Source of the DNA: Escherichia phage Lw1
DNA length: 64,000 nucleotides
Direction: 5' to 3' (one strand)
Sequence record: KC801932
Shown here in pieces: positions 2,271 through 38,932 of this stretch. A program made the position numbers and the translations under genes. The notes below the pieces were generated by a model. The model saw only the letters and a list, made by a program, of their open reading frames with translations, made no database searches and was not told where the DNA came from. The first letter of the stretch is position 1. Every line of letters starts with the position of its first letter.

Positions 2271-4084
2271 AACAAGAAATTATTATAGGTAACGTGGTTG
2301 ATGACGGCGCTGGCGATTACTTACGCCGTGGTGGTCAAAAAACAAACGCGAACTTTACCGAATTATATGAAAAGCTGGGTGACGGGGAAATCCCTCACCC
2401 AGCGGGTGCGTGGAAAACGCATTCCGCTCCTACATTGAACCCTATTTTTGGTGATTCATGGGCGCTGAATACCAGTAACAACCGTATTACTGTAAACCTC
2501 CCTAAAGGGGGCGTAAGCGATTATAACAAGGTTATTCGTCTGCGTGATGTTTGGAGTAAATGGGCGGTTAACAACGTGCGTATCGTTCCGGCAACGGGAG
2601 ACACCATCAAAGGTTCACCAACTTACAAAGAACTGTACAAAGATTTCATGGATGTTGAACTGGTTTATTGTGCTCCTGGGCGTTGGGAATACGTCGAGAA
2701 CAAACAGGTTGACAAAATAACAACTTCGGATCTGGCTACCGTAGCGAAAGAAACCTATATCGCAACTCAGGGACAGACAGACTTCCCGAATGTGTTCGGT
2801 CCTGGCAACATGTACAACGTTCGTGCTCTCGAAGTCTACTATCGTGGTAACTTGCTGTACATCGACGATAAGAACGGCTTTAATGAAGCAAACAGTGATT
2901 ACGGTTCGCCTGGGGCAACTGCGGGGCAACTCGTAGAACTGGATGGAACCAACATACGCCTTAAACGTCCCTGTAACGCTGGTGACACGCTTCAATTTGT
3001 CACCTATATGGATGGTATAGCAACATGGCGTTCGACGTATGAAGCGCATACAATGCGCGTATACAACACTGGAGACACTGAACTTGTGAGCGTACCTGGT
3101 GAAATCTGGGTTGGCGATCTGGCTAACAAGAAAGAATTCACCACTGCTGAATTTGGTATCAGTTCCCGTGTGTTGATTAACCCGAATTCATTCGAACTGC
3201 TGCTGAACGGTCGTCAGCTTGTAAAAGCAGGTGATGCGGATCTTCCTACGTTTGTTTGTGAAGGTGCGGAAGGTTATGATGAAGATAGCTGTTTGGCTAA
3301 CTCCGGTTTATGGGTTCCGTCTGGACAGGATTACAGTCTAATCTTTGTTAACTCTATTGTGACTGGGATTAAGTTTCATCAGGCACTGGAAACCCGCGAT
3401 GTGGTAACAATCCGTTGGTTCAATAACGATATCGGAACCGTAATGGAATGGGACGGCGTAGGCGGTATTAAAGAGCATACGGATAAACTGTATCTGAATA
3501 ACGAAGACGAATTGACTTTGGTTAATCAGATTGAATATACAGACTACAACAACCCGTCACAAAAAACAATGCGTAAGGTTGCAGATCCTTTCGTTGGTCG
3601 TCTGTTGGATTTGCAAGCGTTTTTCGATGTGATTCACCCTATTGGGACAATTTACGAAAACGCACACAACGACGCAAACCCAGGCGATTATATGGGATTT
3701 GGTATCTGGACACGATATGCAGAAGGGATGTTTATTGCTGGTTGGACTACCGATGCAGCAGATAGCGATTTTGGGCTGAACAATAACGATCTGGATGGTT
3801 CCGGTCAACCTACACACACATCAGGTGGTACTGGTGGTGAACGCGGCTACGAAATCAAACCGATCAACGTTCCACAAATCGAATCTACCGATAAAGTTCT
3901 GATTAAGGACGATAACGGGATCATTATCATTGGTGGTTGTCAGGTTGACCCAGATGCAACAGGACCAGGATACACTAAATACCGTGAGGATGTATTGAAA
4001 GTAAATCAGGGTAATACTACTCCTGATAAGCTGAAAACGCTCCCTCCGTATATTACTGCACATCGCTGGATAAGGGTAGCATAA
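2267..4084 (+). CDS. 10: baseplate wedge protein gp10
   Basis: 605 aa; N-terminus IGNVVDDGAGDYLRRGG and C-terminus YTKYRED...RWIRVA match recalled T4 gp10; start overlaps gp9 stop. Confidence 0.85.
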   Translation: MKQEIIIGNVVDDGAGDYLRRGGQKTNANFTELYEKLGDGEIPHPAGAWKTHSAPTLNPIFGDSWALNTSNNRITVNLPKGGVSDYNKVIRLRDVWSKWAVNNVRIVPATGDTIKGSPTYKELYKDFMDVELVYCAPGRWEYVENKQVDKITTSDLATVAKETYIATQGQTDFPNVFGPGNMYNVRALEVYYRGNLLYIDDKNGFNEANSDYGSPGATAGQLVELDGTNIRLKRPCNAGDTLQFVTYMDGIATWRSTYEAHTMRVYNTGDTELVSVPGEIWVGDLANKKEFTTAEFGISSRVLINPNSFELLLNGRQLVKAGDADLPTFVCEGAEGYDEDSCLANSGLWVPSGQDYSLIFVNSIVTGIKFHQALETRDVVTIRWFNNDIGTVMEWDGVGGIKEHTDKLYLNNEDELTLVNQIEYTDYNNPSQKTMRKVADPFVGRLLDLQAFFDVIHPIGTIYENAHNDANPGDYMGFGIWTRYAEGMFIAGWTTDAADSDFGLNNNDLDGSGQPTHTSGGTGGERGYEIKPINVPQIESTDKVLIKDDNGIIIIGGCQVDPDATGPGYTKYREDVLKVNQGNTTPDKLKTLPPYITAHRWIRVA

Positions 4085-4746
4085 TGACACAATTTATTTC
4101 AAAGACAAGGGAGGGGGCGAAAGTCCCTTCTCGTGAAGCAGACTTTTTGCAATATGAAATGGGTACGAAAGAACCCCTTATTGGTGGTAAACGTACCATC
4201 GGCGGTGCAAACGTTGATCAGCTTCGCAAAGGGATAGACTATCCCAACGTACAATCAGCAATCGATGACCTGTATTCTCTGACTCAACAGATCCCGATTA
4301 ACGGGGTTATCATGATGACAGAAGACAGTCCACCGACCGCTGTTCAGCAGGTAGAAACAATCACGTTTGATGGAACTGTACAAAATCCAGATCCAGACCA
4401 AACGAAAGCAACCGTTCATGTTTATGGCTTTCCGTTTGTATTCGATAACACAACGAACGCCTCTACGGTATGCGAAACAGTATTCAACAAGTTTACTGAA
4501 TTTGTCAACGACGAAAAATATTTCGATCTGGTTACGCGTAAAGGATTGAACGGGGAAATTCTGGAAGTTCGTTTTATTGATGCGGTTCCACATCCGGTAA
4601 CTAACGCAACAGAAAACGGGATCTCTATGGTTGGTGTAATCGACGTACAGGCGCGTTCTGGTTACGGTACGTGGTCGAAACTGGGTGAGATTGATCTTGC
4701 TGTAACTCCACCTGTTCCGATTTATTATTTCAAACGTATTGCGTAA
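4084..4746 (+). CDS. 11: baseplate wedge protein gp11
   Basis: 220 aa; C-terminal GYGTWSKLG...YYFKRIA resembles T4 gp11 C-terminus; synteny. Confidence 0.8.
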   Translation: MTQFISKTREGAKVPSREADFLQYEMGTKEPLIGGKRTIGGANVDQLRKGIDYPNVQSAIDDLYSLTQQIPINGVIMMTEDSPPTAVQQVETITFDGTVQNPDPDQTKATVHVYGFPFVFDNTTNASTVCETVFNKFTEFVNDEKYFDLVTRKGLNGEILEVRFIDAVPHPVTNATENGISMVGVIDVQARSGYGTWSKLGEIDLAVTPPVPIYYFKRIA

Positions 4747-4755
4747 GGATAACCA

Positions 4756-6147
4756 ATGAGTAACAACACAATTAACCACGTAAGCGATGCGTCAGTTTAC
4801 GTGACTTTCGATCCGGCTGGTACGCAATGGCCTTCGACGTTTACCAACGTACAGCAAGCCCTAGCCTCTATAGGCTCATGGGCGCGTGAAGATGTGGGTT
4901 TGCCTAACGCTGCCCCTGGTGTGCGTGGTATCGCTGCTATTGCTACCGAGGCGATGATTGACGCAGGTACTGACACCGAAACGATCGTTACTCCAGCGCT
5001 GTTGGCATATCGTTTACAGAATCCTCATGCGTCACAAACTGTATGGGGTTATACCCGTTATGCGACCGATGCAGAAGCAACCACAATCACTAACGATTTG
5101 GTTTCTGTAACTCCGCGTTCTGTTGATGTTATTTTCAACACCAGACAAGCAACAGAAACTGTATGGGGTTCTGCGAAACTGTCAACTACAGCACAAGCAA
5201 CATCAGGTACTGATGACACAACCGCAATGACTCCATTGAAGGTTAAACAAGCGATCTCCGCTCTGGTTCCGGTTCAATCTAACGCAACGGAAAGTTCGTT
5301 CGGTTTGGTTCAGTTGGCTACGGTTGCAGAAGTCCGCGCAGGTACTATCCGCGATGGATTTGCAATTTCACCATATACGTTTATTCGTCTGAATGCAACA
5401 GAATCCGATCTAGGTATTATTCGAATAGCTTCACAGGGTGAAGTCAACACAGGCGCTGATGATACAAAAGCTGTTACCCCGCTGAAACTGGCTAACTTGA
5501 AAGGTTCTGGTAGCGCGTTTGGTTTGGTTAAATTATCAACAGATGTAAACACAGGGCTGGCGAACACAGCGCTTTCTGCTGGTGCTAACGTGGTTCCGAG
5601 CAACCGTGATAGTGCAATTACTGGTGGTGCTCTGTATCAGGGTTCAGTTACTGGTGCTAATAAATACCAAACACATAGCGACGTTGAAGCAAATATTCCT
5701 ATTGGGTGTATGATGCTCGCGGCATTCAACTCAGATTACGGAAACCTGTTTATCGCAAACGGTCGCGCGATGAATAGAAACGCAAACCCAGAACTATTTG
5801 CACGTATTGGCTACGCATATGGCGGTAGTGGTGATATTTTCAACCTCCCAGATATGCGCGGGGTTGCTGCTCGTGGTTTCGATGCGGGACGTGGGTTAGA
5901 TCCTGGTCGCGGGTTTGGTACATATCAGGCCGATGCGTTTGCGTATCACGAACATAACCTACAGATGATTTTGCTGAACGGCGGTAATATTCCATCAAGT
6001 CAGGCTGTTTATGAACTGAAATGGGCCAAGAAAAATGACCAACGAATCTATGATTTAGATCCGAACTATAGCAAAGCTAAGGGTGTTGGTGCTAACGAAA
6101 CGCGAATGAAAAACGTTGCGGTCAACTATGTAATTCGAGTACGATAA
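4756..6147 (+). CDS. 12: short tail fibre protein gp12
   Basis: 463 aa; repeated A-x-x-G-T/A-DDT-x-A-x-TP fibre repeats; C-terminus NVAVNYVIRVR resembles gp12/gp37 C-terminal receptor-binding region; synteny. Confidence 0.8.
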   Translation: MSNNTINHVSDASVYVTFDPAGTQWPSTFTNVQQALASIGSWAREDVGLPNAAPGVRGIAAIATEAMIDAGTDTETIVTPALLAYRLQNPHASQTVWGYTRYATDAEATTITNDLVSVTPRSVDVIFNTRQATETVWGSAKLSTTAQATSGTDDTTAMTPLKVKQAISALVPVQSNATESSFGLVQLATVAEVRAGTIRDGFAISPYTFIRLNATESDLGIIRIASQGEVNTGADDTKAVTPLKLANLKGSGSAFGLVKLSTDVNTGLANTALSAGANVVPSNRDSAITGGALYQGSVTGANKYQTHSDVEANIPIGCMMLAAFNSDYGNLFIANGRAMNRNANPELFARIGYAYGGSGDIFNLPDMRGVAARGFDAGRGLDPGRGFGTYQADAFAYHEHNLQMILLNGGNIPSSQAVYELKWAKKNDQRIYDLDPNYSKAKGVGANETRMKNVAVNYVIRVR

Positions 6148-11769: not shown

Positions 11770-14109
<2,340 letters not shown>

Positions 14110-27715: not shown

Positions 27716-28279
27716 ATGTTGAACCATGAATGTTTGAAAGATTTAAGTGACGGTAAAGAGATCGGGAACGTTATATTTCTCGATATTGATGGAGTTCTAA
27801 ATAATATGCGGTCTATGAAATTCGGTGAACATATGGACATCGAATGTGCGCGACACTTGCGCCGGATCGTGAACCATGCAGATTGTGATATCGTTGTTTC
27901 TTCAACATGGCGTATAGGAAACACGACACACAACCTACGTGAAATTCTGTACCCCTGGGGGCTTTATCGCGTTATCGGTCGAACTTGTAGTAATATGCAG
28001 GGTGCTTACCAACGTGGGGATGAAATCAAGGCATGGATCGACGCTTTCGGATGTAAGAATTATCTTATTCTGGATGATGATCGCGACATGTTACAGGAAC
28101 AGAATGAACACTTCATTCGAACCGATCCTTACATTGGGTTGACAGAAGAACAATCAACCTTTGCGATCCGTAATATATTTGGAATAACGACCCCGTTTTG
28201 TCCTGAATGCAATGGCTACGGGCGCGTGAATGAATATGATAAATGCGGTAGCTGCAACGGTAAAATTTTACGTCTATAA
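27716..28279 (+). CDS. HAD-superfamily phosphatase-like protein with C-terminal zinc ribbon
   Basis: 187 aa; N-terminal VIFLDIDGVLNN is the HAD motif I (DxDGxL); C-terminal C-P-E-C...C-G-S-C. Confidence 0.55.
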   Translation: MLNHECLKDLSDGKEIGNVIFLDIDGVLNNMRSMKFGEHMDIECARHLRRIVNHADCDIVVSSTWRIGNTTHNLREILYPWGLYRVIGRTCSNMQGAYQRGDEIKAWIDAFGCKNYLILDDDRDMLQEQNEHFIRTDPYIGLTEEQSTFAIRNIFGITTPFCPECNGYGRVNEYDKCGSCNGKILRL

Positions 28280-28282
28280 ATA
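28275..28282 (+). promoter_or_regulatory. T4-type late promoter core TATAAATA
   Basis: Exact TATAAATA, 25 nt upstream of ORF 28307. Confidence 0.5.
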
Positions 28283-28306
28283 TAGAAAAATTAAGAGGTT
28301 TCAACA

Positions 28307-28810
28307 ATGGCTACTGAAAAATGGACTACGGTTCACCCTATCCCGTGGCGTAATACCAGTTTTACCTATCTCCCGTGGTGGATCTTCGATATTATCGTTG
28401 CTGCTAATACGGCTGGTGATGACTGGCGAGGTTACGCCGAAGAAAAATATGCGAAAGAATTCGACACTCTGAAACAGGCATACATCGATTATACCGATGT
28501 TGATTTCATCGAATCTCGCAACGGTTATCTGTATAAACTGAGTGATTTTACTCCTGCTGATCCTGTCGTAACAATTACACCAAAAACCGCTCCTGCTGAT
28601 TTCAAAGTAGGTGATGCTGACCTAGCTGCAACTGATCTGTTTACCATCGATCCTTCTGGTACAGCAATGACTCTGAGTGTTGACTCTTCCGGTCATGGTT
28701 CTATCGTTGGTGGTAAACTCCATGCGGTTAGTGAAGGTGATGTTGTCGTAACAGCAACCTCTGGATCTGTTACTGCAACTCTGACGGTAAACGTTAAACC
28801 TGCACTATAA
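28307..28810 (+). CDS. hypothetical protein with C-terminal bacterial Ig-like (Big_2-type) domain
   Basis: 167 aa; C-terminal 80 aa (FKVGDADLAATDLFTIDPSG...LHAVSEGDVVVTATSGSVTATLTVNV) fits the Big_2 pattern. Confidence 0.6.
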   Translation: MATEKWTTVHPIPWRNTSFTYLPWWIFDIIVAANTAGDDWRGYAEEKYAKEFDTLKQAYIDYTDVDFIESRNGYLYKLSDFTPADPVVTITPKTAPADFKVGDADLAATDLFTIDPSGTAMTLSVDSSGHGSIVGGKLHAVSEGDVVVTATSGSVTATLTVNVKPAL

Positions 28811-28827
28811 CAACTAAGAAGGTAAAA

Positions 28828-29328
28828 ATGCTGCTATTTGAATTCAATGATGTATTCGCAAAATTCAGCGATGCAATCGAAGCTAAATTTGGCAAACGTC
28901 CACAAAACATGACAGAAACAGAATATAACGATGCTGTTTCGTCCCTGGTTCGTACAGATTTCTATGAAAAGCTGGCGATCGAGGTTTTGGGCTGGGATAT
29001 GATGAAATGGGGTATGACTTATCGCGATCGCGAAGTCGGTTTTATTCTCGTCAACGAAGTCAAAAGCCCGTCCTGGGTGAATAACCAGAAAATAGCATAT
29101 ATGGATAAAGTATGTGCGGAAATGGGGATTGTTCGACTGGACTTCTGGACTTGCCGTGATCTGAACGAACTGAAAGGTCACGCGTACCGTTGCCCGTTGA
29201 TTTCTCGCAATGAGAAACACCGTCAAGCATGGGATAGCGCTGGGAAATATCGTAGCGTGTTCCTGAACGACGACATTAACATCACTATTCAGGACGTGAA
29301 TCGAGCGTTCACTGAATACCATCCATAA
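28828..29328 (+). CDS. hypothetical protein
   Basis: 166 aa ORF with AGGT upstream; no recognised family. Confidence 0.5.
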   Translation: MLLFEFNDVFAKFSDAIEAKFGKRPQNMTETEYNDAVSSLVRTDFYEKLAIEVLGWDMMKWGMTYRDREVGFILVNEVKSPSWVNNQKIAYMDKVCAEMGIVRLDFWTCRDLNELKGHAYRCPLISRNEKHRQAWDSAGKYRSVFLNDDINITIQDVNRAFTEYHP

Positions 29329-29330
29329 TA

Positions 29331-29360
29331 AAAAAGGGAACCGCAATGGTTCCCTTTCTT
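29331..29360. terminator. bidirectional terminator between convergent genes
   Basis: AAAAA-GGGAACC-gcaat-GGTTCCC-TTTCTT. Confidence 0.6.
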
Positions 29361-29828
29361 CTAGGCTATTTTTCTTATTTCTTTCAAGGCTTCTTCTTTG
29401 CTTCCAACGAAGAGGATCGCTTTACCTCCGGCTTTTCTGAATGGCAACACGGCTTTTGCTCTGTCGTCTATCAGTATGCCCTGGCTCGCGTAGGCTGCTT
29501 TGTCTTTGCTGCTTTTGGTGTAGTGGAATTCAGGTAAGTATCCCAATTCTCTCAACAGCGCTTTTTTCTTCTGTTCTGCTACTTCTTCTGAATCATACTT
29601 CCCAACACTGGTCAAGATCGCAACCTGTCCCAATGTTTTCAGGTGGTGGAACAATTCAAACCCTTCTTTTAAAGGTTTCAGGTTTTCGTAGAAGTCGGTT
29701 TTTGCGATTGCTTGTTTAGCCTTTTTCAGTTCTTCTTCTGGCATTCTCGCCGGATCACCATACATCGGTATGAAAGAACCTTCCCAATCAAACAGTACAC
29801 CATCCATATCAAAGAAAAACTTATTCAT
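29361..29828 (-). CDS. HAD-family 5'(3')-deoxyribonucleotidase-like protein
   Basis: 155 aa from ATG at 29828 (GAGG upstream); N-terminal FFFDMDGVLFDW matches the DMDGVL motif of 5'(3')-deoxyribonucleotidases; the track ORF extends to 29915 but overlaps the upstream gene. Confidence 0.6.
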   Translation of the reverse strand: MNKFFFDMDGVLFDWEGSFIPMYGDPARMPEEELKKAKQAIAKTDFYENLKPLKEGFELFHHLKTLGQVAILTSVGKYDSEEVAEQKKKALLRELGYLPEFHYTKSSKDKAAYASQGILIDDRAKAVLPFRKAGGKAILFVGSKEEALKEIRKIA

Positions 29829-29877
29829 ATCAATTCCTCGCCTTGTGTGTGCATAATATTCATATATGTTCTCATTG

Positions 29878-30711
29878 TCAACCCCATGTATCGGTTTTAG
29901 GTGCGTATGCTGCAACTTTAGCCACTAATTCCTTATCAAGCTGATCAATGGATTTCTGCGGTTTGCCTTTTGCCTTAACTTTGATGTAATTAGACTTGAC
30001 AACGAACATACCGCCTTTGTCGGATTTCTTAACTTCGCTATCAATACCAACTTTGTTAAAGCTGATCCAGATGTCACCATCCATGTACTGTTTCAGAGAA
30101 TCGCCCATGTTAAGGATCTTAGCCATAGTAAGCGCGGCCCCTTCGTGGGTATCCATGAGGATCTCTTTTGGAACAACACGGTCGCGTTTCAGGTTCTGCT
30201 GCATGGCAATATGAACATCGTTCATTACCCAAACGATATGGATGTTTTCTTTCTTGTACCCCAGCGCTTCAACATCACGGGCGATACTTGCCAGTTTGCT
30301 CATGCTTTTCAGGGTTACGTCAAAAATCAGGTTTGGTTTGCGATCTTCCGGTGCTGCTGCGATACCAGCATAAACACGCGCCTGGTTTTTGTTTGATACG
30401 TTGAAAACGTCTGCGATCACATGGTGAAGTGTTGCAACGTTATCAGGGTTTTTCAGGTTCATTGTTTTAACGTCATGACCTGTTTTTGCTTTAATTTCTG
30501 CTGCTAGTTTGGTGCTACCCATTACCAGCTTTTTCAATGCGTCAACGTCCAGTGTGATCCCTTCGATGCCTAACAGCTTTTCGAGAGTGAAGCCTTTACC
30601 GGAACCCGCACCGCCAGCCAGGATCACGACCTGACCGAATTTCTGATAAGCCTTACCGCCGAAGGTAATCAGCGCTTCATCAAGGCTCACAAAGTCTTTG
30701 AATGATTTCAT
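29878..30711 (-). CDS. nucleoside-monophosphate-kinase-like P-loop protein
   Basis: 277 aa; P-loop ILAGGAGSGKG resembles the adenylate/UMP-CMP kinase G-x-x-G-x-GKG loop; precise substrate unknown. Confidence 0.5.
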   Translation of the reverse strand: MKSFKDFVSLDEALITFGGKAYQKFGQVVILAGGAGSGKGFTLEKLLGIEGITLDVDALKKLVMGSTKLAAEIKAKTGHDVKTMNLKNPDNVATLHHVIADVFNVSNKNQARVYAGIAAAPEDRKPNLIFDVTLKSMSKLASIARDVEALGYKKENIHIVWVMNDVHIAMQQNLKRDRVVPKEILMDTHEGAALTMAKILNMGDSLKQYMDGDIWISFNKVGIDSEVKKSDKGGMFVVKSNYIKVKAKGKPQKSIDQLDKELVAKVAAYAPKTDTWG

Positions 30712-30743
30712 TTTAGAACTCCAGGGTTATTTTAATATATTTA

Positions 30744-30773
30744 TTGACATCGTTTTGCTGATGGATTTATAGT
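30744..30773 (+). promoter_or_regulatory. sigma70-like promoter TTGACA-N18-TATAGT
   Basis: Hexamers at 30744-30749 and 30768-30773, in the divergent intergenic region upstream of ORF 30824. Confidence 0.45.
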
Positions 30774-30823
30774 GAAGATGTTCGACGGATAGGCCGGAAG
30801 AACTTTAACCATAAGGTGACATT

Positions 30824-31717
30824 ATGAAACTTGAATTAAACCGCTTCATCAAAGCCGCTGCTGCTGGCGACCAGTCAAAATATACATCACGCCGCAACCA
30901 CACATTGTCAAACGATTTCGCTGACCTGCTTGGGTTCAAGCGCTGGCATACTCCGGTTATGCGTCCCGACTGCGATCCTAAATGGGATTACTTTCGTTGG
31001 AGTATTCCCAAACATGCCATTGTGAAAAAGATCCGTGTGATGTCTTTCCGTTTTCTGTATCCTAACTGTATCATCGAAATCGCAAAAGAACGAGATATCA
31101 CCCTCCCTAATGGTTGGAAACTTGCTGACCTGATGGAAACACTGATCCAGATGCGTAGAGAATACAAAGCTGGATACATCCGTTCCTTTGATAAGTTGGG
31201 TGATTACTCAGACAGCGATAATTACAAAGAATGGCAAATGATCGCAAAGTACCTGTTAAACAGCATATGGATTATTATTTGCGGCAAAGGTTCTGCGATC
31301 AACCTGGGAGGTCATGAAATTATTGCCCGTGCTCGCGAAAAGGTTTGTGATGCGGTAAACAAAATCATTTCTTCAGGTGGCGTTGTTCTGCATGTAAACG
31401 TTGACGAAATCGTGTATTACGGCGAACAGGTGGAAGTTGATAATGTCCATCATGAAAAACACTGGAAAGCTATTTTTACTGGTGGCGGTGCTGCATGGGG
31501 TGATAATATGATAACAAGTGGCCCCATTCCAACGATTAAATTTGACCTTGATGACTGGGAACCGCAAAACAACGGTATTCGTTCGGTCGAGGAACAACGC
31601 GCAATGGCTGAACGTATGGCTGCAACGCGAATCAAACGTTTCACCAATGAAATCATAGAGTATATGAACCGCACAAAAGAAGACGTGTTGAAAGATGTTG
31701 ACTTGTCCGGTGAATAA
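30824..31717 (+). CDS. hypothetical protein
   Basis: 297 aa ORF with GGTGA upstream; no recognised family. Confidence 0.5.
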   Translation: MKLELNRFIKAAAAGDQSKYTSRRNHTLSNDFADLLGFKRWHTPVMRPDCDPKWDYFRWSIPKHAIVKKIRVMSFRFLYPNCIIEIAKERDITLPNGWKLADLMETLIQMRREYKAGYIRSFDKLGDYSDSDNYKEWQMIAKYLLNSIWIIICGKGSAINLGGHEIIARAREKVCDAVNKIISSGGVVLHVNVDEIVYYGEQVEVDNVHHEKHWKAIFTGGGAAWGDNMITSGPIPTIKFDLDDWEPQNNGIRSVEEQRAMAERMAATRIKRFTNEIIEYMNRTKEDVLKDVDLSGE

Positions 31718-31753
31718 CTGTAAGCTGTAATCACTGAAAACAAGGAGATAACC

Positions 31754-32071
31754 ATGAAAACGATTCACTGCCGCGAAGAACACGTTGTTTATTACCACGG
31801 ATCTTGTACTGCTGCTGGGATTGAGAGCATGTTGTTGCCTCCTTGTGCTTCTGAAACTCTGTCTGAAAAAGGCAGAAAGAAAAATCTGGATCGTGTTTTC
31901 TTCACTGCTGACATCGGACTTGCTCGGATCTATGCTGGAAGGGCTGCACGTTCTATAGGTGGTGATCCGGTACTGTATCGGGTTGTGTGTCCGGTTGATG
32001 CTGTATGTATGAACGACGACAAAGGCGCGAGCGTTTACCATGCTGCATGGGCTTTCTGTGAGGAAGTATGA
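31754..32071 (+). CDS. hypothetical protein
   Basis: 105 aa; AAGGAG 6 nt upstream; first gene of a translationally coupled five-gene string. Confidence 0.5.
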   Translation: MKTIHCREEHVVYYHGSCTAAGIESMLLPPCASETLSEKGRKKNLDRVFFTADIGLARIYAGRAARSIGGDPVLYRVVCPVDAVCMNDDKGASVYHAAWAFCEEV

Positions 32072-32235
32072 ATGACCGTGTTTTAGCAGTTCTCGTTTTC
32101 CTTCTGGGTTATCGAGTTGAAGTAATGGGTGGTATCATGGCGATGGACGGTGACCTGACCGCAATTTGGGTTACTGCTTTAGGTGTGATGTTCACGTTTC
32201 TTTCTTTTGCGATTGTTAACGAGGCAAACAAATGA
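32068..32235 (+). CDS. small hydrophobic (two-helix membrane) protein, 55 aa
   Basis: ATG 32068 overlaps the upstream stop (ATGA) and its own stop overlaps the next ATG (ATGA); two hydrophobic segments (VLAVLVFLLGY, AIWVTALGVMFTFLSFAIV); absent from the ORF track because it is under 60 aa. Confidence 0.4.
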   Translation: MNDRVLAVLVFLLGYRVEVMGGIMAMDGDLTAIWVTALGVMFTFLSFAIVNEANK

Positions 32236-32558
32236 AACTATTTCATGTAGTGTATGGCGGTATACGTAATCTTGATGTACCATTGCTTGCTGCGGGAACA
32301 GTTGATACACTTGAAGGTAAGATCGGGAAGCGTTTTAAAACTACCGTATCCGAAATCAAAACGGTGTTTGTTGACCATCCGTCAGATATGGAAAATTTAA
32401 TCAATACTCTGGATGACTTGATGATTCCGTTTGCGGAAGAATTTCATTATCAATCAGGACTGTATTTGATTGTGACATTTGTTCTAAAAAATGTTGACAA
32501 TCGAAATCCAGAAGTGTTAGATTTTGTAAGAAAAATCGATTCAATTAAAGGAAAGTGA
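32232..32558 (+). CDS. hypothetical protein
   Basis: 108 aa; start overlaps the preceding stop. Confidence 0.5.
   Translation: MKLFHVVYGGIRNLDVPLLAAGTVDTLEGKIGKRFKTTVSEIKTVFVDHPSDMENLINTLDDLMIPFAEEFHYQSGLYLIVTFVLKNVDNRNPEVLDFVRKIDSIKGK
32494..32522 (+). promoter_or_regulatory. possible internal sigma70-like promoter TTGACA-N17-TTAGAT
   Basis: Good -35, weak -10; lies inside ORF 32232-32558. Confidence 0.3.
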
Positions 32559-32899
32559 TTATGAAAATCGTTCAGCGTAATATCAGCGAAGTTAGCCAGG
32601 AAGAAAAAGTTCAGATTCATTTCAAATTTAATGATCTGAAACGTGGTTATGCAGAAATTGCCCGTGTTCATGGGCTGGACAATGGGGATATTTATATGAT
32701 TGTCCAAGAAATTGAGCGAATTCGTGCTTTCCGTGCGGAGAACCCGAAAGTAAAACGCGTTCTGCGTCGTGTATATGTCAACAAACACCGCAAAGCGGCG
32801 AAACAAGTTAAAACCAAACGCGAACCGCGTCCAGATAACAAACGTAAAGCAATCAACGGTGCTATGGCGCTGGCTTTCCAGGAAGCGGGTTTAGTGTAA
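32555..32899 (+). CDS. hypothetical basic protein
   Basis: 114 aa; lysine/arginine-rich C-terminal half; start overlaps the preceding stop. Confidence 0.5.
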   Translation: MIMKIVQRNISEVSQEEKVQIHFKFNDLKRGYAEIARVHGLDNGDIYMIVQEIERIRAFRAENPKVKRVLRRVYVNKHRKAAKQVKTKREPRPDNKRKAINGAMALAFQEAGLV

Positions 32900-32908
32900 G
32901 GGGCTGAC

Positions 32909-33439
32909 ATGAGTCGTAGACAAAATATGGAACGTTGGACTGGTGTTGTAACCAGCAGTGTTAAACCAGTTACCGCTGTAGTGAAAGAAGTTGTTGAAGA
33001 AACTCCGGTTAAAACTCAGATGGTTATTTCTCTGAGTGATGAAGAGTTAGAGCATCGTCGCCGTGCGAATCAAATTGAATTCGATCTGCGTATCGCTCGT
33101 TCATACAACAGCAAAAATGATGATGCTCGTAGCCGGAATCTGCAATTTGCTCTTACGTTGAGTGATTGGACCTCTTTAATGAGTCAACCAACTTGCTTGT
33201 ATTCTGGGAAGGTGTTTAGTTCTCGTGGAGATAGCCCGAATTCTCGAACGATGGAACGAATTAACCCGATGCTGGGTTACACTCCAGAAAATACGATCGC
33301 AGTGACAAAAGCCGCTAACAGTGAAAAATCATCACTTGATGCGTTTATGAAGGGTTCGGTAATCCTTCCAGAAGTAAAACTGAAACTGTTACGCAAAGCC
33401 GCGTATCAAATTGAAAAACAATTGAAAATCAAAGGTTAA
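32909..33439 (+). CDS. hypothetical protein with degenerate HNH-like motif
   Basis: 176 aa; C-LYSG...ERINP..GY..EN...V.KAAN.EK aligns to the HNH scaffold (CxxCG...HHIxP..GG...N....C..CN..K) but lacks the catalytic His and most zinc ligands. Confidence 0.4.
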   Translation: MSRRQNMERWTGVVTSSVKPVTAVVKEVVEETPVKTQMVISLSDEELEHRRRANQIEFDLRIARSYNSKNDDARSRNLQFALTLSDWTSLMSQPTCLYSGKVFSSRGDSPNSRTMERINPMLGYTPENTIAVTKAANSEKSSLDAFMKGSVILPEVKLKLLRKAAYQIEKQLKIKG

Positions 33440-33443
33440 TATT

Positions 33444-34490
33444 ATGTTTGTGAAATATTCTTCTCTTACTAACCATTACGAAGGTAAGTTCATTAATGGC
33501 GTGATCATGAATGGCCTTACTGGTGGTGTGTGGTGTGCTCGTGAAAAGATACACGGTACAAACTTTAGTCTGATTACTTCGGACGGTGAAAAAGTCATTC
33601 CAGCAAAACGTAGCGGTGAAATCCTTCCTACTGAACAGTTTTACGGTTGTGAACCTGTCGTTGCAAAATATTCTAATGCTGTGCGCGAGTTGTGGGAAAC
33701 CCTCGCAAATACCTGTGAATATAAGGAATACGCTGATATCGGTTCTCTGGTTGTACAGGTATACGGCGAATTTGCGGGGCGTGGTGTTCAAAAAGATGTT
33801 GATTACGGAGAAAAAGATTTCTATGTATTCGATATCCGTGTGAATGATAAATTTTTACCAGATAACATTGTTGCATCGGCTGCTGTTTGTGTTGGTTTGA
33901 AAATGGCTCCATTGCTGGCATATGGTACGTTTGAAGAGATCCGCGAACTGCCTATCACGTTTGATTCTGTTGTCAACCTGGCTAATTCCGGCGCAATTGT
34001 TGCGCAAAATGGCGTTGAACCTGCGTTCAAAAACTTCATGACTCTGAAAGATGGTGAAGGTGAAAACATCGCGGAAGGTTTCGTGATGAAGCCCGTCGAA
34101 CCTGCTTTCATGCCGAACGGTGAACGCGTTGCGATCAAATGCAAAACGACGAAGTTCACAGAGAAGAAGAACAAGCAAGCGAACCGCTTCAATGCTCCTG
34201 TTGAACTGTCTGAAAATGATAAAGTTAAACTGGATGTGTTTACCTGTTACCTGAACGAAAACCGCGTGAAAAATGTTTTGTCTAAAATTGACAGCGCAAA
34301 TCTCACTGCAAAAGATTTCGGTCGCGTAATGGGCCTGACGGTACAGGATGCGCTGGAAGAAATCGAACGTAATTATGGCCCGTTCCTGGAACAGTTCGAG
34401 AATCCAACGCTGGCGAAGAAAACCTTCACTAACGAAGCGTCAAATCTGGTTCGTGAGAACTGGGGCGCAATCCTGAACAATGAATTTTAA
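33444..34490 (+). CDS. rnlB: RNA ligase 2
   Basis: 348 aa; strong similarity to T4 Rnl2 as recalled (AREKIHGTNFSL, KDFYVFDI, RVAIKCK.SKF.EKK, MGLTVQD.LEE). Confidence 0.88.
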   Translation: MFVKYSSLTNHYEGKFINGVIMNGLTGGVWCAREKIHGTNFSLITSDGEKVIPAKRSGEILPTEQFYGCEPVVAKYSNAVRELWETLANTCEYKEYADIGSLVVQVYGEFAGRGVQKDVDYGEKDFYVFDIRVNDKFLPDNIVASAAVCVGLKMAPLLAYGTFEEIRELPITFDSVVNLANSGAIVAQNGVEPAFKNFMTLKDGEGENIAEGFVMKPVEPAFMPNGERVAIKCKTTKFTEKKNKQANRFNAPVELSENDKVKLDVFTCYLNENRVKNVLSKIDSANLTAKDFGRVMGLTVQDALEEIERNYGPFLEQFENPTLAKKTFTNEASNLVRENWGAILNNEF

Positions 34491-35064
34491 AACGGTTCTG
34501 GACAACGCGAAGACGGCTACCCTGATCGGTAGCCGTGAACCCCCCGAACGTATCGCAAACCTCGCAATCAAGATCGGACGCGCTTTAAGTGATCGGGAAA
34601 TATTCGCTTACTCTGGTGGTGCTCCAGGAATGGATAGTCATTTTTTATTTGATTACTCACCAGAAAGACGGCGTATAATTCTTCCTGAGAACGGTTTTAA
34701 CGGGTTGTACTCAAATGGTAAGGATATCATCGACTATACAGAATACGACACGTACAAAGCCGCTGACGAAGCGAGAAAGGTAGCTGGACACTTCGACAAC
34801 CAAAACGAATGGACACAGCGCCGATATGCTCGAAATTCCATGCAGGTGCTAACCGAACATCTGGATACGCCTACGGATTTTGTGTTATTCTGGGCTGTTG
34901 AAAAAGAGTTTTGTGTGAAAGGCGGTACTGCGATCGCAGTAAGATTGGCCCGACTGTATGGCATACCCTGTTTCAATCTCTGGAATGAACGGGTATTAAA
35001 TGAAGTTTGCGACACTTTGGGGATTAATACTAAACCTCCAACTTTGGATTTTCTCTGGTGCTAA
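34480..35064 (+). CDS. DprA/SLOG-like Rossmann-fold protein
   Basis: 194 aa; YSGGAPGMDSHF resembles the DprA/Smf SG-x-A-x-GID-x-x-H nucleotide-binding loop; start overlaps the rnlB stop. Confidence 0.45.
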   Translation: MNFKTVLDNAKTATLIGSREPPERIANLAIKIGRALSDREIFAYSGGAPGMDSHFLFDYSPERRRIILPENGFNGLYSNGKDIIDYTEYDTYKAADEARKVAGHFDNQNEWTQRRYARNSMQVLTEHLDTPTDFVLFWAVEKEFCVKGGTAIAVRLARLYGIPCFNLWNERVLNEVCDTLGINTKPPTLDFLWC

Positions 35065-35578: not shown

Positions 35579-35606
35579 TTGACGGGAGTTGTGAGTGTGG
35601 TAATAT
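35579..35606 (+). promoter_or_regulatory. sigma70-like promoter TTGACG-N16-TAATAT with flanking inverted repeat
   Basis: Hexamers at 35579-35584 and 35601-35606; GGGAG (35584-35588) and CTCCC (35609-35613) bracket the -10. Confidence 0.5.
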
Positions 35607-35646
35607 AGCTCCCGTAGATAAGACACTAACCCAAAAGGAAAACATC

Positions 35647-35916
35647 ATGGAAATCAGATTAATCCCTACTTGCGCTGGTTACTGCTTGGCCCTGAACGGC
35701 GTAGCAAACAACGGCAAAGGCTTACGGGCTAACGTTGAAGCAATGCTGAACGAATTAGCGTTGCGGAGTGAACCAGGGATGCAGTATGAGTATGATGACG
35801 TTGCAACCAGCGTTAAAATCTCTAATTTGGTTTTGGACGGTGTTGACTGTGCGGGTTGGTGGGACTGTTACATCGACTACACTGACAACCGGGTTTTCTT
35901 ATTGACCAGCAATTAA
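35647..35916 (+). CDS. hypothetical protein
   Basis: 89 aa ORF downstream of the promoter, with AAAGGAAA before the ATG. Confidence 0.45.
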   Translation: MEIRLIPTCAGYCLALNGVANNGKGLRANVEAMLNELALRSEPGMQYEYDDVATSVKISNLVLDGVDCAGWWDCYIDYTDNRVFLLTSN

Positions 35917-35924
35917 GGAATATC

Positions 35925-36338
35925 ATGAAAGATTATATTTCAGAAGCTGAGGCTCTTGAACAAAGCGGTTATTGTGTCAACGTCGAAGATGAAGACGAAG
36001 ATGACGGCTATGATGGTGGTGTTATGTGGGGGCTTAAACGTCCTCAACGCAAAACCCCAGTTCAGTATTCCGATGGTTCGGTAAGATACGAAACGGTTGT
36101 CAAAGAAGTAAACGGGCGTGTCATTACGTCCGAGCGACAGAAGGACATCAAACAGTTGTATGATGTTGCGAAAGCCGCTAAAGTGGGAACCATGATTGTT
36201 TGCCCTACGTGCAAAGAGTTGCACAATAAGACGACTTATCACAAGGTGTTCTGCTCTAATGGCAAAAAATCCAGGAAAGACTGTAAGAGTAAATACTGGA
36301 ACACGATCCATCCAGAACGGTTAGATCGTATCTTTTAA
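35925..36338 (+). CDS. hypothetical protein with C-terminal zinc-ribbon-like cysteines
   Basis: 137 aa; CPTC...C..C cluster in the C-terminal third. Confidence 0.5.
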   Translation: MKDYISEAEALEQSGYCVNVEDEDEDDGYDGGVMWGLKRPQRKTPVQYSDGSVRYETVVKEVNGRVITSERQKDIKQLYDVAKAAKVGTMIVCPTCKELHNKTTYHKVFCSNGKKSRKDCKSKYWNTIHPERLDRIF

Positions 36339-36361
36339 ATCAAAACGTGGAGTACGTTTAA

Positions 36362-37795
36362 ATGCAAAAATTTACTGAACTGAATAGCCTGATCACCTCA
36401 ACTGATTCCTACAAAGTGTCTCACTGGATGCAGTATCCACAAGGCACTGATGCAACGATGTTCTATATCGAATCTCGTGGTGGTAAATTTGATGAAGTCG
36501 TAACTGCTGGCGTTAACTACGTTGCGCGGGTACTGGCTGAACCTGTTACCATGAAACAAGTTGAGTTGGCGCGGGTGCTTTACCGTAAGCACTTCGGGAA
36601 AGAAATTTTCAACTATGAAGGATGGAAAGAGATCGCAGAACTGGGTTACACCCCTGTGATTTTCCGTTCTATTCCAGAAGGTACAGTTGTTCCGGTTAAA
36701 AACGCCGTTGCGACCGTGTTCTCTGAGAATCAATTCTCCTGGTTGGCTGGTTGGTTGGAAACAATGACGATTCGCGGTATCTGGTATCCGTCATCTGTTG
36801 CGACTCTATCCCGTGAGTGTAAAAAGGTTCTGGCTCAGTACCTGAATATGACTTCTGACCTGACTGGCGAAGCATATAATGTTACACTGGGTACACGTCT
36901 GCATGACTTTGGGGCGCGGGGCGCGACCTCTGCTGAGTCTGCGGGTATTGGTGGGCTGGCGCACCTTTACAACTTCGTTGGAACTGATACCGTCGAAGGG
37001 ATGATTATGGCAATCAGCCTGTTTGCGGATCATCAGACTCTGTTTGATGAACTGGAAAATGTCGAAGCCGCTGGCATTTCGATTCCTGCTCGCGAACACT
37101 CAACGACGATTTCCTACGGTAAAGAAAACGAAGAAGACGCATACAAAAACAGCATCAAAATGTTCGGTACTGGGTTCTACGCTTGTGTGTATGACTCATG
37201 GGACTATAAAGCCGCTGTTGATCGCATTGCTGAGTATAAAGAGAAAATCATTGCTGCGGGTGGTACTCTGGTAGTTCGTCCAGATTCAGGGGATATGATC
37301 GATAACATCATGTATACCCTTCGTAAATTGGCGCAAATTTTCGGATACACCGTAAACAGCAAAGGTTATAAAGTTCTGCATAACGCAGTTCGTATCATCC
37401 AGGGCGACGAGATCCACGGGCCTGAGACAATCAACCGTGTGTTAAGCTGGATGGAAGCGAACAAGTGGTCAAGCGAGAATATCGCGTTTGGTATGGGTGG
37501 AGGTTTGCTGCAAGAAGTTACCCGCGATACTCAAAAGTATGCCGAAAAGCTGTGCGCTATCCGTGTGAATGGTAAGTGGACAGGCGTTTACAAATGTCCG
37601 AAAGGTTCTGAGTGGAAAAAGAGTAAAAAAGGTTTGCTGATGACCATCACTAACGGTATGGAATTCAAGACCATTGATATTCTGGAAGACTCAATTCCTG
37701 ACGGTTGGTTCGATGCGATGGTGACTTATTACGATAATGGTTACTTGAACACCGACGACACTTTAGGGGAAATTCGTGAGCGTAGCCGGATTTAA
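36362..37795 (+). CDS. nadV: nicotinamide phosphoribosyltransferase (NAMPT / NadV)
   Basis: 477 aa; diagnostic blocks SYKVSHW, HDFGARG, VRPDSGD, IQGD, IAFGMGGGLLQ shared with eukaryotic and bacterial NAMPT. Confidence 0.88.
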   Translation: MQKFTELNSLITSTDSYKVSHWMQYPQGTDATMFYIESRGGKFDEVVTAGVNYVARVLAEPVTMKQVELARVLYRKHFGKEIFNYEGWKEIAELGYTPVIFRSIPEGTVVPVKNAVATVFSENQFSWLAGWLETMTIRGIWYPSSVATLSRECKKVLAQYLNMTSDLTGEAYNVTLGTRLHDFGARGATSAESAGIGGLAHLYNFVGTDTVEGMIMAISLFADHQTLFDELENVEAAGISIPAREHSTTISYGKENEEDAYKNSIKMFGTGFYACVYDSWDYKAAVDRIAEYKEKIIAAGGTLVVRPDSGDMIDNIMYTLRKLAQIFGYTVNSKGYKVLHNAVRIIQGDEIHGPETINRVLSWMEANKWSSENIAFGMGGGLLQEVTRDTQKYAEKLCAIRVNGKWTGVYKCPKGSEWKKSKKGLLMTITNGMEFKTIDILEDSIPDGWFDAMVTYYDNGYLNTDDTLGEIRERSRI

Positions 37796-38084
37796 TATCC
37801 GCGCCAACGATAACGGATCTGTAATCTTCTATAACAATCAGCCCCTTGTTGCTCGCAAGGGGTTTTTTTGTAAGCTGGTTGGTTACGGGTTCAAGTTGGA
37901 GGAAGTGGATAATTCAACTCTGAAAGAGATAGTGCGAATAGCCTATCTCCTGAAAGACAAAAAAGATGAACATAAAGCGGTTGCAATGTTGGAGAAATTA
38001 GGCGAAACTCATTGCTTCATTATCAATCGTGGGTACAAATATGACACGATCGCTTTATTCGAAAAGGGGCTTTGTGAATTATGA
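37776..38084 (+). CDS. questionable ORF spanning the nadV terminator
   Basis: 102-aa track ORF that overlaps the nadV 3' end and contains the terminator hairpin; a shorter real ORF may start downstream of 37868. Confidence 0.2.
   Translation: MSVAGFNIRANDNGSVIFYNNQPLVARKGFFCKLVGYGFKLEEVDNSTLKEIVRIAYLLKDKKDEHKAVAMLEKLGETHCFIINRGYKYDTIALFEKGLCEL
37841..37868 (+). terminator. strong rho-independent terminator after nadV
   Basis: CCCCTTG-ttgctcg-CAAGGGG followed by TTTTTTT. Confidence 0.75.
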
Positions 38085-38932
38085 ATTATTTGGGTGTGAT
38101 TCCCTATACGGGCAACAAGCAGAATTTATTGCCTAAGTTGTTTGAACTCTTTCCAGATCGCAGACATTATCATCGATTCGTTGATTGTTTTTGTGGTGGA
38201 TTGAGTGTGTCGCTAAACGTCCCCAAACCCGTTCTAAGCAACGATTACGATAAGACACTGATTGATGTGTATAAGATGCTTAAACGCGCTCCTGATCTCT
38301 CTGAGGTGCGAGAATTGATTGCTAAGAAGGGACTGAACAAAGAAAACAAGGAAGCGTATCTGGCTTTTCGTGAAGAATACAACCAGCATCGTGATCCGTT
38401 GTGGCTATACGTTCTGATCCTTCATTCGTTCAGCAATGTCAACCGCACCAATGAGAAAGGGGAGTTTAACGCGCATTTCGGATACCGGACGATAAACACA
38501 TCGACCGTGAAGAGGTTCGAACACTTCAAAAATAACGTGGCTGGAATTGAGTTTCGTTCTGGTTCATACTCTGATATTGAAATCAACGATAACGATTTTG
38601 TTTATTGCGATCCTCCGTACCTGATAACCGATGCGGTGTATAATAAATTCTGGAACGCAGATCGCGAACGCGAGTTATATGCTTTCCTTGACTCCCTGCA
38701 TGAGCGGGGCATTTGGTTTGGTTTGTCTAACGTGACGCACCATGCCGGAAAACAAAACGATATCCTGATTGAATGGATGAAGAAATACACCGTTCATAAC
38801 CTGGATAAAAAGTATCTGTTAGGGCAACACACAGAATCCTATGAGCAAAACAAAACACAGGAGGTGTACGTGTGCAACTACCAGAAACGAGAAGTAAATA
38901 CATTCCCACAAACACTAGATGATTTAATGTAG
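38081..38932 (+). CDS. dam: DNA adenine methyltransferase Dam
   Basis: 283 aa; YTGNKQ.LLP, FVD.FCGGLSVSLNV, DPPYLIT and NKFW match recalled T4 Dam. Confidence 0.88.
   Translation: MNYLGVIPYTGNKQNLLPKLFELFPDRRHYHRFVDCFCGGLSVSLNVPKPVLSNDYDKTLIDVYKMLKRAPDLSEVRELIAKKGLNKENKEAYLAFREEYNQHRDPLWLYVLILHSFSNVNRTNEKGEFNAHFGYRTINTSTVKRFEHFKNNVAGIEFRSGSYSDIEINDNDFVYCDPPYLITDAVYNKFWNADRERELYAFLDSLHERGIWFGLSNVTHHAGKQNDILIEWMKKYTVHNLDKKYLLGQHTESYEQNKTQEVYVCNYQKREVNTFPQTLDDLM

Follow-up and report, generated by a model that had tools for sequence, protein, structure and literature searches.

NadV of Escherichia phage Lw1, a nicotinamide phosphoribosyltransferase that probably pairs with a distantly encoded NatV in NAD+ reconstitution pathway 2

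The nadV gene of Escherichia phage Lw1 encodes a nicotinamide phosphoribosyltransferase (Nampt) that is very probably active and works with a phage NatV as the two-gene NAD+ reconstitution pathway 2 (NARP2) in this Pseudotevenvirus. As a putative dimeric type II phosphoribosyltransferase, NadV would convert nicotinamide and PRPP to NMN. NMN would then be converted to NAD+ by the bifunctional NatV, a NadM-type NMNAT combined with a Nudix ADP-ribose pyrophosphatase, which would be encoded on the other strand approximately 70 kb away. Together, the two enzymes would produce NAD+ from nicotinamide during infection. The KVP40 version of NARP2 cancels NAD+-depleting defenses, type I Thoeris and DSR2 among them, and by analogy with the KVP40 pair, we infer a counter-defense role for NadV in the present phage. 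The gene is half of a published pathway whose orthologues are already listed, and its import lies mostly in correct annotation; nadV is an ordinary, previously catalogued gene, and the orthologues in Miller, RB16, and RB43 are annotated as nicotinamide phosphoribosyltransferase. The following features lie at the nadV locus within the window, that is, the whole 64-kb stretch of DNA that was analyzed:

35579-35606, + strand: predicted sigma-70-type (T4-early-like) promoter, TTGACG, 16-nt spacer, and TG-extended TAATAT, 9/12 matches
35647-35916, + strand: 89-aa ORF, phrog_7372, function unassigned, placed first in the putative transcription unit that includes nadV, present in Miller, RB16, and KP27
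35925-36338, + strand: 137-aa ORF, phrog_7424, with a Cys-rich C-terminus, ending 23 nt before nadV
36349-36352, + strand: GGAG ribosome-binding site, 9 nt 5' of the nadV ATG; Miller is annotated with a ribosome-binding site at the equivalent place
36362-37795, + strand: nadV, Nampt, 477 aa, ATG start, with Pfam, NCBIfam, and PHROG matches above threshold
37776-38084, + strand: 102-aa ORF, phrog_7497, overlapping the 3' end of nadV by 20 nt and containing the hairpin, which encodes PLVARKGFF
37840-37870, + strand: stem-loop AGCCCCTTGT / GCAAGGGGTT with a 5-nt loop, followed by a T7 run, 10 pairs in the terminator scan; predicted intrinsic terminator or mRNA 3'-end element

Based on the family searches, NadV has the domain composition of a type II NAMPT, with an N-terminal NAMPT_N domain (PF18127, 2.5e-24, 85.8 bits against a cut-off of 25) and an NAPRTase catalytic barrel (PF04095, 7e-40, 137.7 bits against a cut-off of 20.8), both above the curated thresholds. 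Similarly, the NCBIfam equivalog NF006629 matches with 459.9 bits (cut-off 405), and these family scores are far beyond chance. In comparisons with the PDB, NadV is homologous over its full length to bacterial NAMPT (7yqo, E = 1.5e-105) and mammalian NAMPT (2gvl and 2gvg, ~1e-85). It differs from the former by an 11-residue insertion around residues 221–231 and from both by being phage-encoded, with a role tied to infection. The four signature blocks on which a sequence-only reading had based the NAMPT/NadV assignment are all present, namely, DSYKVSHW at residue 15, HDFGARG at 181, RPDSGD at 306, and GMGGGLL at 377, and the assignment holds.

Every NAMPT catalytic or substrate-binding residue examined is kept in NadV. 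In the alignment to mammalian NAMPT (2gvl numbering), Asp15 and Tyr17 correspond to Asp16 and Tyr18, Phe183 and Arg186 to Phe193 and Arg196, Asp209 to Asp219, Arg306 and Asp308 to Arg311 and Asp313, Gly348-Asp349 to Gly353-Asp354, and Arg388 to Arg392, and the GGG loop formed by Gly379–Gly381 corresponds to Gly383–Gly385. Moreover, His246 aligns with His247 of the mammalian enzyme and would be the counterpart of the histidine that is autophosphorylated in human NAMPT. The inactive catalytic residues that the earlier reading had named as grounds for abandoning its proposal are thus not seen among the positions checked. Collectively, the homology indicates that NadV is the Nampt of a T4-like phage of the RB43/RB16/Miller type, with an intact active site as judged from these residues.

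The window, which covers 64 kb of a phage genome of ~178 kb, shares ~90% nucleotide identity with Citrobacter phage Miller along a collinear alignment, and by this measure its source is a T4-like Pseudotevenvirus of the RB43/RB16/Miller type. The gene arrangement in the window matches that of Miller, RB16, and RB43: rnlB and the dprA-like gene are followed by three small ORFs and nadV, and then by another small ORF, dam, nrdC, 49, and nrdD. These phages differ from the window only by species-level sequence divergence (~90% nucleotide identity). Their NadV proteins are equal in length to that of Lw1 and are 96.9% (Miller), 91.6% (RB16), and 91.2% (RB43) identical to it. Neither the 89-aa ORF at 35647-35916 nor the 137-aa ORF at 35925-36338 matches a Pfam family. 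Further upstream, the 105-aa ORF at 31754-32071, a suspected Arr-like ADP-ribosyltransferase, shows no Pfam, NCBIfam, or PDB sequence match, and its single-sequence AlphaFold model has a pLDDT of 41.7.

The sequence-only reading had also stated that the window contains no NMNAT partner for NadV, and this is borne out. The window was searched by tblastn with a Felixounavirus Adps and with the NatV proteins of KVP40, Miller, Xman, and Aeromonas phage AS4, and no match was better than E = 0.6. The H-x-G-H motif is absent from open frames of at least 60 aa, and among frames of at least 30 aa, its sole occurrence is in a 34-aa antisense frame. A pattern scan for the Nudix box returned nothing meaningful, and no PRPP-synthetase-like, Nudix, or NMNAT gene was found within the 64 kb. 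The relatives, however, place the partner elsewhere in the genome. A bifunctional NMNAT/Nudix protein similar to KVP40 NatV is encoded by 20/20 of the closest relatives (tblastn), and at an identity of at least 60%, NadV is found in 178 records and NatV in 175. The Miller NatV (352 aa, 79267-80325, − strand) contains CTP_transf_like and NUDIX domains with HNGH and SATDLR motifs and is 41% identical to KVP40 NatV over the full length. Its gene is on the opposite strand, 70 kb from nadV, at a position that maps ~34 kb before the start of the window. From these relatives, we infer that the present phage encodes NatV ~70 kb from nadV, and the partner would be missing from the window only because it is located outside these 64 kb. 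The missing partner had been regarded as noteworthy, but nadV (138214-139707) and natV (94507-95532) are also unlinked in the KVP40 prototype, at 43 kb apart. The NARP2 genes of T4-like phages lie tens of kilobases apart; thus, a 64-kb window can be expected to lack the partner, and this does not point to an incomplete or unusual pathway.

Membership in NARP2 is also suggested by clade placement. NadV is 49% identical to the biochemically characterized KVP40 NadV (E = 9e-146), its closest relative among characterized phage enzymes, whereas it is only 25% identical to an Adps-linked Namat of a Felixounavirus. In Table S2 of Osterman et al. 2024 (10.1101/2024.02.11.579819), the Miller protein (KM236237_00240), which is the 96.9%-identical orthologue, and the RB16 protein (HM134276_00238) are labelled "Nmnat-associated", i.e., NARP2. 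The link to KVP40-type NAD salvage drawn in the earlier reading therefore stands. Similar to the KVP40 NadV and NatV pair (Lee, Li and Miller 2017, as cited in PMC9503650), the pathway of the Pseudotevenvirus group would follow a two-enzyme logic, with the NMNAT and Nudix architecture in the NatV of the relatives and with unlinked genes. In contrast, KVP40 infects Vibrio rather than Enterobacteriaceae, and its pair is characterized, while the Pseudotevenvirus proteins are known from sequence.

Four other explanations bear on the role of NadV and on the second step. The NadV and NatV pair could be mainly an auxiliary metabolic module, which raises the NAD(P) pool for nucleotide reduction or for NAD+-consuming phage enzymes; the chemistry would be the same as in the counter-defense role, and the selective reason would differ. 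This explanation, which we consider unlikely, agrees with the location of nadV among nucleotide-metabolism genes (nrdC, nrdD, nrdG, nrdH-like, dam, and nucleotidases) and with the increase in NAD+ caused by NARP2 even in cells without a defense system (Osterman et al. 2024). Against it, the KVP40 Nampt and Nmnat fully abolish Thoeris and DSR2 defense (Osterman et al. 2024), although the two roles are compatible with each other and sequence cannot separate them. In a far less probable explanation, NadV belongs to the Namat type of NARP1 and joins nicotinamide to ADPR-pyrophosphate (ADPR-PP) made by Adps. The Namat proteins (Bas63, SpbetaL1, and Felixounavirus type) share the Pfam pair NAMPT_N and NAPRTase with Nampt, and KVP40 Nampt has some activity on ADPR-PP in vitro (Osterman et al. 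2024). However, ADPR-PP is the substrate of Namat proper, to which NadV is only distantly related (~25%), and the adjoining Adps gene of NARP1 is absent here: no Adps/PRPS-like gene is found beside nadV or anywhere in the window, the flanking genes carry no Prs domain, and the best tblastn match of the Felixounavirus Adps in the window has E = 2.9. Furthermore, with the orthologues labelled as Nmnat-associated, the report that no phage was found with both NARP1 and NARP2 also argues against this identity (Osterman et al. 2024). Because NadV falls in the KVP40-type clade and Adps is missing from the window, the Namat identity was rejected, with hardly any probability left to it.

The remaining explanations concern the conversion of NMN. 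Without a phage NMNAT, NMN could be passed to the NMNAT activity of host NadR, or to the deamidase PncC and then to NadD and NadE. Enterobacterial hosts encode NadR, PncC, NadD, and NadE, and the host route is in line with the lack of an NMNAT within the 64-kb window. Moreover, 94% of phages with KVP40-type Nampt encode Nmnat, leaving ~6% without it (Osterman et al. 2024). Nevertheless, the presence of NatV in all of the nearest relatives and the mapping of the Miller NatV outside the window make this route quite improbable. Finally, the sequence-only reading had named three possible sources of the second step, namely, another part of the genome, the host, or one of two adjacent proteins. The option "elsewhere in the genome" is retained, with NatV in every close relative, whereas the two adjacent proteins, which show no NMNAT signature, are not. 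These proteins are as follows:

34480-35064: SLOG-superfamily protein with a DprA fold, located 1.3 kb before nadV, assigned by AlphaFold and Foldseek
29878-30711: zeta-toxin-like P-loop kinase (Pfam Zeta_toxin) in an RNA-repair-like cluster with a HAD_SAK_2 phosphatase and the RnlB RNA ligase

As NMN adenylyltransferases, both have in their favor only that they lie close to nadV, at 1.3 kb and 5.6 kb, and that their folds are of a general nucleotide-binding kind. Neither shows (H/T)xGH together with a nucleotidyltransferase Rossmann fold carrying ISxTxxR; the DprA-like protein lacks HxGH and is predicted to adopt a DprA Rossmann fold, while the kinase, as a Zeta_toxin match, would have a phosphotransferase fold unsuited to adenylyl transfer. 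Considering also the dedicated NatV of the 20 nearest relatives, such a role has next to no probability for either protein, and for the DprA/SLOG-like protein it was rejected after homologue search, alignment, AlphaFold, and Foldseek.

The AlphaFold model of the DprA-like protein has a pLDDT of 95.6, and its best PDB matches in Foldseek are the DprA Rossmann domains 5mll and 4ljk (E ~5e-6) as well as the ShosA antitoxin. The structural match to the SLOG domain of ThsA is weak (E = 0.02-0.05), and a function as a sponge of the Thoeris signal is without specific support. Viral SLOG domains have been proposed to bind or degrade ADPR-derived immune signals (Iyer et al. 2022). It is conceivable, at rather long odds, that the DprA-fold protein is not a recombination mediator but a second anti-defense factor allied with NadV, acting by binding or degradation of an ADPR signal or by ShosA mimicry in ShosTA. 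If true, the region would be a small NAD-centered counter-defense island instead of a lone metabolic gene.

Returning to NadV as the first enzyme of NARP2, its gene would be transcribed early, probably from the promoter at 35579-35606 and together with the two small upstream genes. The predicted promoter is located in an 87-nt gap 5' of a three-gene unit, of which nadV is the last gene, and its −35 region, GTTGACGGG, is invariant across six phages including KP27. Promoter function at this site is thus presumed from its match and conservation. At the other end, the GC-rich hairpin at 37840-37864 is followed by TTTTTTT, with a folding energy of −17 kcal/mol (z = −2.65), and its stem is invariant in six phages, the more distant KP27 among them. 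Terminator-like sites in the region number 8 compared with 9.0 ± 2.9 in shuffles, which is not above chance.

The ORF at 37776-38084 shows a codon-position bias in its substitutions, with 5/1/8 variable columns at codon positions 1/2/3 ahead of the hairpin and 10/5/23 beyond it, and this pattern indicates that the ORF is translated. Inside the hairpin, in contrast, only 1/10 of the third codon positions vary, compared with 23/27 just downstream. Since the hairpin lies within this conserved downstream ORF, it cannot be called a clean intergenic terminator, and such a placement fits poorly with an efficient terminator. To credit nadV with its "own terminator", as in the sequence-only reading, goes too far: the conserved hairpin and T-run exist, but they are embedded in the next gene, and the predicted promoter is common to nadV and the two upstream genes. 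Located ~45 nt past the nadV stop, the hairpin and T-run probably end or stabilize part of the transcript.

As reported, the phage Nampt family is split into two clades, the Adps-associated one (Namat, NARP1) and the KVP40-Nampt type; 94% of phages with the latter also encode an Nmnat, and the pair was named NARP2 (Osterman et al., bioRxiv 10.1101/2024.02.11.579819). The KVP40 genes abolished type I Thoeris and DSR2 defence and raised NAD+, which NARP2 did even without a defence system, and Table S2 of that study lists as 'Nmnat-associated' the proteins Miller KM236237_00240 and RB16 HM134276_00238, beginning MQKFNELNSLITSTDSYKVSHW... and MKTFNELNSIITSTDSYKVSHW..., respectively (Osterman et al., bioRxiv 10.1101/2024.02.11.579819). 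Both are orthologues of the window NadV. NadV of the window shares 49% identity with its KVP40 counterpart and only 25% with an Adps-linked Felixounavirus Namat, and a tblastn search of the window with one Adps found none near nadV. These three observations identify nadV, at the sequence level, as a known, already catalogued NARP2 Nampt. The mainstream part of the sequence-only reading stands, while its treatment of the absent partner as notable and of neighbouring proteins as the second step does not.

36362-37795, + strand: nadV ORF, ATG-initiated, 477 aa
9 nt upstream of the nadV ORF, + strand: GGAG

All four NAMPT motif blocks quoted in that reading were located in the 477-aa protein (DSYKVSHW at residue 15, HDFGARG at 181, RPDSGD at 306, and GMGGGLL at 377). 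NadV matches Pfam NAMPT_N (2.5e-24) and NAPRTase (7e-40), each far over the gathering score, NCBIfam equivalog NF006629 (459.9 bits; cut-off 405), and PHROG 448 'nicotinamide phosphoribosyl transferase' (3.5e-164). Its top solved-structure matches are bacterial NAMPT 7yqo (1.5e-105) and then mammalian NAMPT (~1e-85). In an alignment with mammalian chain 2gvl, which has native numbering, all NAMPT active-site residues checked are conserved (human/NadV: D16, Y18/D15, Y17; F193, R196/F183, R186; D219/D209; H247/H246; R311, D313/R306, D308; G353-D354/G348-D349; glycine loop G383-G385/G379-G381; R392/R388). Thus, the inactive catalytic residues that the sequence-only reading had named as grounds against an active enzyme were not found.

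The absence of NatV, the bifunctional NMNAT/Nudix partner, from the window was borne out: four NatV proteins and one Adps, used as tblastn queries, gave a best E of 0.6, and no H-x-G-H occurs in open frames of at least 60 aa; the lone instance among frames of at least 30 aa lies in a 34-aa antisense frame. Aeromonas phage AS4 encodes a NadV of 50% identity and, 5.3 kb upstream of its nadV, has a 'bifunctional NMN adenylyltransferase/Nudix' gene. With AS4 NatV as the query, 436 phage records were retrieved, including Citrobacter, Enterobacter, Cronobacter, Klebsiella, and Escherichia T4-likes, and the gene was located in the Citrobacter phage Miller genome.

Miller 79267-80325, - strand: natV

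Miller NatV carries CTP_transf_like and NUDIX domains, the nucleotidyltransferase motifs HNGH and SATDLR, and, as judged by eye, a Nudix box GHKNANE-x7-RELLEE. Over the full length it shares 41% identity with KVP40 NatV, and it matches the NCBIfam 'bifunctional nicotinamide-nucleotide adenylyltransferase/Nudix' models, but under their equivalog cut-offs. By tblastn, it recovers 20/20 of the records that best matched the window DNA. Moreover, the clade counts are nearly equal, with NadV at 60% identity or more in 178 records and NatV in 175.

Miller is collinear with the window across 42 kb at ~90% identity. Because Miller position 128235 corresponds to window position 13829, the window spans roughly Miller 114.4-178 kb, and Miller natV maps ~34 kb before its first base. 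The end of Miller natV (80325) and the start of nadV (150578) are 70 kb apart, and in KVP40 natV (94507-95532) and nadV (138214-139707) are 43 kb apart. A 64-kb slice without the partner is thus expected for any such genome, and its absence here is unremarkable; natV is present in all relatives examined. Judging from these relatives, it is very nearly certain that the window's own phage encodes natV.

From the family, a route can be proposed in which NAD+-depleting effectors would release nicotinamide and ADP-ribose, NadV would form NMN from nicotinamide and PRPP, and the NMNAT domain of NatV would convert NMN and ATP to NAD+. KVP40-type Nudix domains carry the annotation ADP-ribose pyrophosphatase. 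The NatV Nudix domain would cleave NAD+ and so regulate its level, as ascribed to it by Iyer et al. The sequence fits selection acting mainly through counter-defence as well as selection acting mainly through a general boost of NAD+.

NMN could also be consumed by host NadR, or by PncC and then NadD and NadE; nothing in the analysis requires this. The other proposed source of the second step was one of two neighbouring proteins.

34480-35064, + strand: DprA-like protein, 194 aa (PHROG 768 'DprA-like' strong; Pfam DNA_processg_A weak)
29878-30711, - strand: zeta-toxin-like P-loop kinase, 277 aa (Pfam Zeta_toxin 32.8 bits; cut-off 22.3)
27716-28279, strand not given: HAD_SAK_2 'Swiss-army-knife RNA repair' phosphatase with DnaJ-type zinc finger (profile match)
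28828-29328, + strand: nucleotidase-like gene (deoxyribonucleotidase in the Miller record)
29361-29915, - strand: nucleotidase-like gene (weak NT5C match; deoxyribonucleotidase in the Miller record)
33444-34490, strand not given: RNA ligase 2 (family match)
31754-32071, + strand: 105-aa ORF (phrog_2110) with a YYHGS...VFFTAD...LYRV pattern

The AlphaFold model of the DprA-like protein (pLDDT 95.6) best matches H. pylori DprA (5mll, 4ljk; E ~5e-6, TM 0.56), followed by the ShosA antitoxin (8zva, 7.7e-4) and S. pneumoniae DprA; ThsA SLOG and LOG proteins match weakly (E = 0.02-0.05). The modeled fold is that of a DprA-type Rossmann domain and not of a HIGH-superfamily nucleotidyltransferase, and the protein was rejected as the NMNAT on this basis. 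The kinase was rejected because of its Zeta_toxin match and its cluster context, which suggests processing of RNA or nucleotide ends rather than adenylyl transfer. By fold and family, neither neighbour is a credible second enzyme, and with NatV none is needed.

Window 27716-34490 as a whole has the look of an RNA-repair gene cluster. By its pattern, the 105-aa ORF might be an Arr-type ADP-ribosyltransferase; it had no Pfam, NCBIfam, or PDB sequence match, and its single-sequence AlphaFold model, at pLDDT 41.7, is too poor to use.

The sequence-only reading also gave nadV its own terminator.

35579-35606, + strand: predicted sigma-70-type promoter (TTGACG, 16 nt, TG-extended TAATAT), in the nearest real intergenic space
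37776-38084, + strand: ORF downstream of nadV, overlapping its end by 20 nt and containing the hairpin
37840-37864, + strand: hairpin AGCCCCTTGT-TGCTC-GCAAGGGGTT, 10 pairs, 5-nt loop, then T7
15493, 16142, 16655, 18939, 19589, 28275, 49332, 56993, + strand: T4-type late promoter motif TATAAATA (motif scan)
32689, - strand: TATAAATA (motif scan)

The hairpin folds at -17 kcal/mol (z = -2.65) and does not vary among six phages, one of them KP27 with its diverged flanks; terminator-like sites in the region show no excess (8 vs 9.0 +/- 2.9 in shuffles). The downstream ORF looks translated, with 5/1/8 variable columns at codon positions 1/2/3 ahead of the hairpin and 10/5/23 beyond it. Of the third positions in the hairpin itself, 1/10 varies, and such near fixation inside a coding ORF indicates nucleotide-level constraint over the coding sequence. 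The hairpin might terminate transcription in part or stabilise a 3' end.

The intergenic gaps upstream of nadV are just 8 and 23 nt, the -35 region of the predicted promoter is invariant in 6/6 phages, and the motif scan of the window found no late promoter near nadV. From the small gaps, the upstream promoter, and the lack of a nearby late promoter, we infer an early unit of an 89-aa ORF, a 137-aa ORF, and nadV. Collectively, the hairpin and T7 are real, but nadV would not stand alone, as the hairpin lies inside the next ORF and the promoter is probably shared.

The late-promoter motif is enriched in the window (9 vs 2.7 +/- 1.7 expected), with 8/9 sites on the + strand; five fall at 15.5-19.6 kb, the part that holds tail, portal, and head genes on the Miller map. 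An inverted repeat, CGGGAGTT ... AGCTCCCG (35582-35615, +), brackets the predicted promoter from the -35 element to about +1. It is kept in 6/6 aligned phages, with one base changed per arm in KP27, and might act as an operator or form a structure in RNA or DNA.

The 5-kb stretch around nadV matches 94 phage records, best Citrobacter phages Xman, CfP1, and Miller (~91% nt) and next RB16 and RB43 (~86%), all Pseudotevenvirus (T4-like Straboviridae). NadV identity is 96.9% in Miller, 91-92% in RB16 and RB43, and 73% in KP27. The gene order rnlB, dprA-like, three small ORFs, nadV, small ORF, dam, nrdC, gene 49, nrdD is common to Miller, RB16, RB43, and Dev_CS701, and to KP27 except for an inserted homing-endonuclease gene that separates rnlB from the DprA-like gene. 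The stretch that follows nadV (window 37776-38932, vs 4014-5059 of locus L011 in Cronobacter phage Dev_CS701) varies among relatives: Dev_CS701 has an extra N-4/N-6 DNA methylase gene ahead of dam, and its annotation starts the small ORF downstream of nadV past the hairpin. With the KP27 insertion, the region is a plastic one.

The stand-alone DprA-fold protein is conserved across Pseudotevenvirus and Slopekvirus. Its invariant residues among 47 aligned homologues are G17-S18-R19, S45-G46-G47, G50, D52, R118, and G148-G149-T150. ShosA is the antitoxin of the ShosTA defence system; an anti-defence role for the phage protein is conceivable but unsupported. Annotations in Miller, IME-CF2, and UPEC03 truncate the gene by ~50 aa (143-144 aa; 'FHA domain' in UPEC03) and so lose the invariant GSR motif. 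In the RefSeq record of RB43, the frame of this gene is broken (479-1063 of its locus L012). In Miller, the full 194-aa frame is open from L001:20473 (Miller locus, L001 20473-21057).

34515-34534, + strand: perfect 7-bp inverted repeat GGCTACC-ctgatc-GGTAGCC, inside the DprA-like CDS over the TLIGSR codons

In Miller, the annotation places a minus-strand terminator at the equivalent site; it probably misled the start-codon call for the Miller gene.
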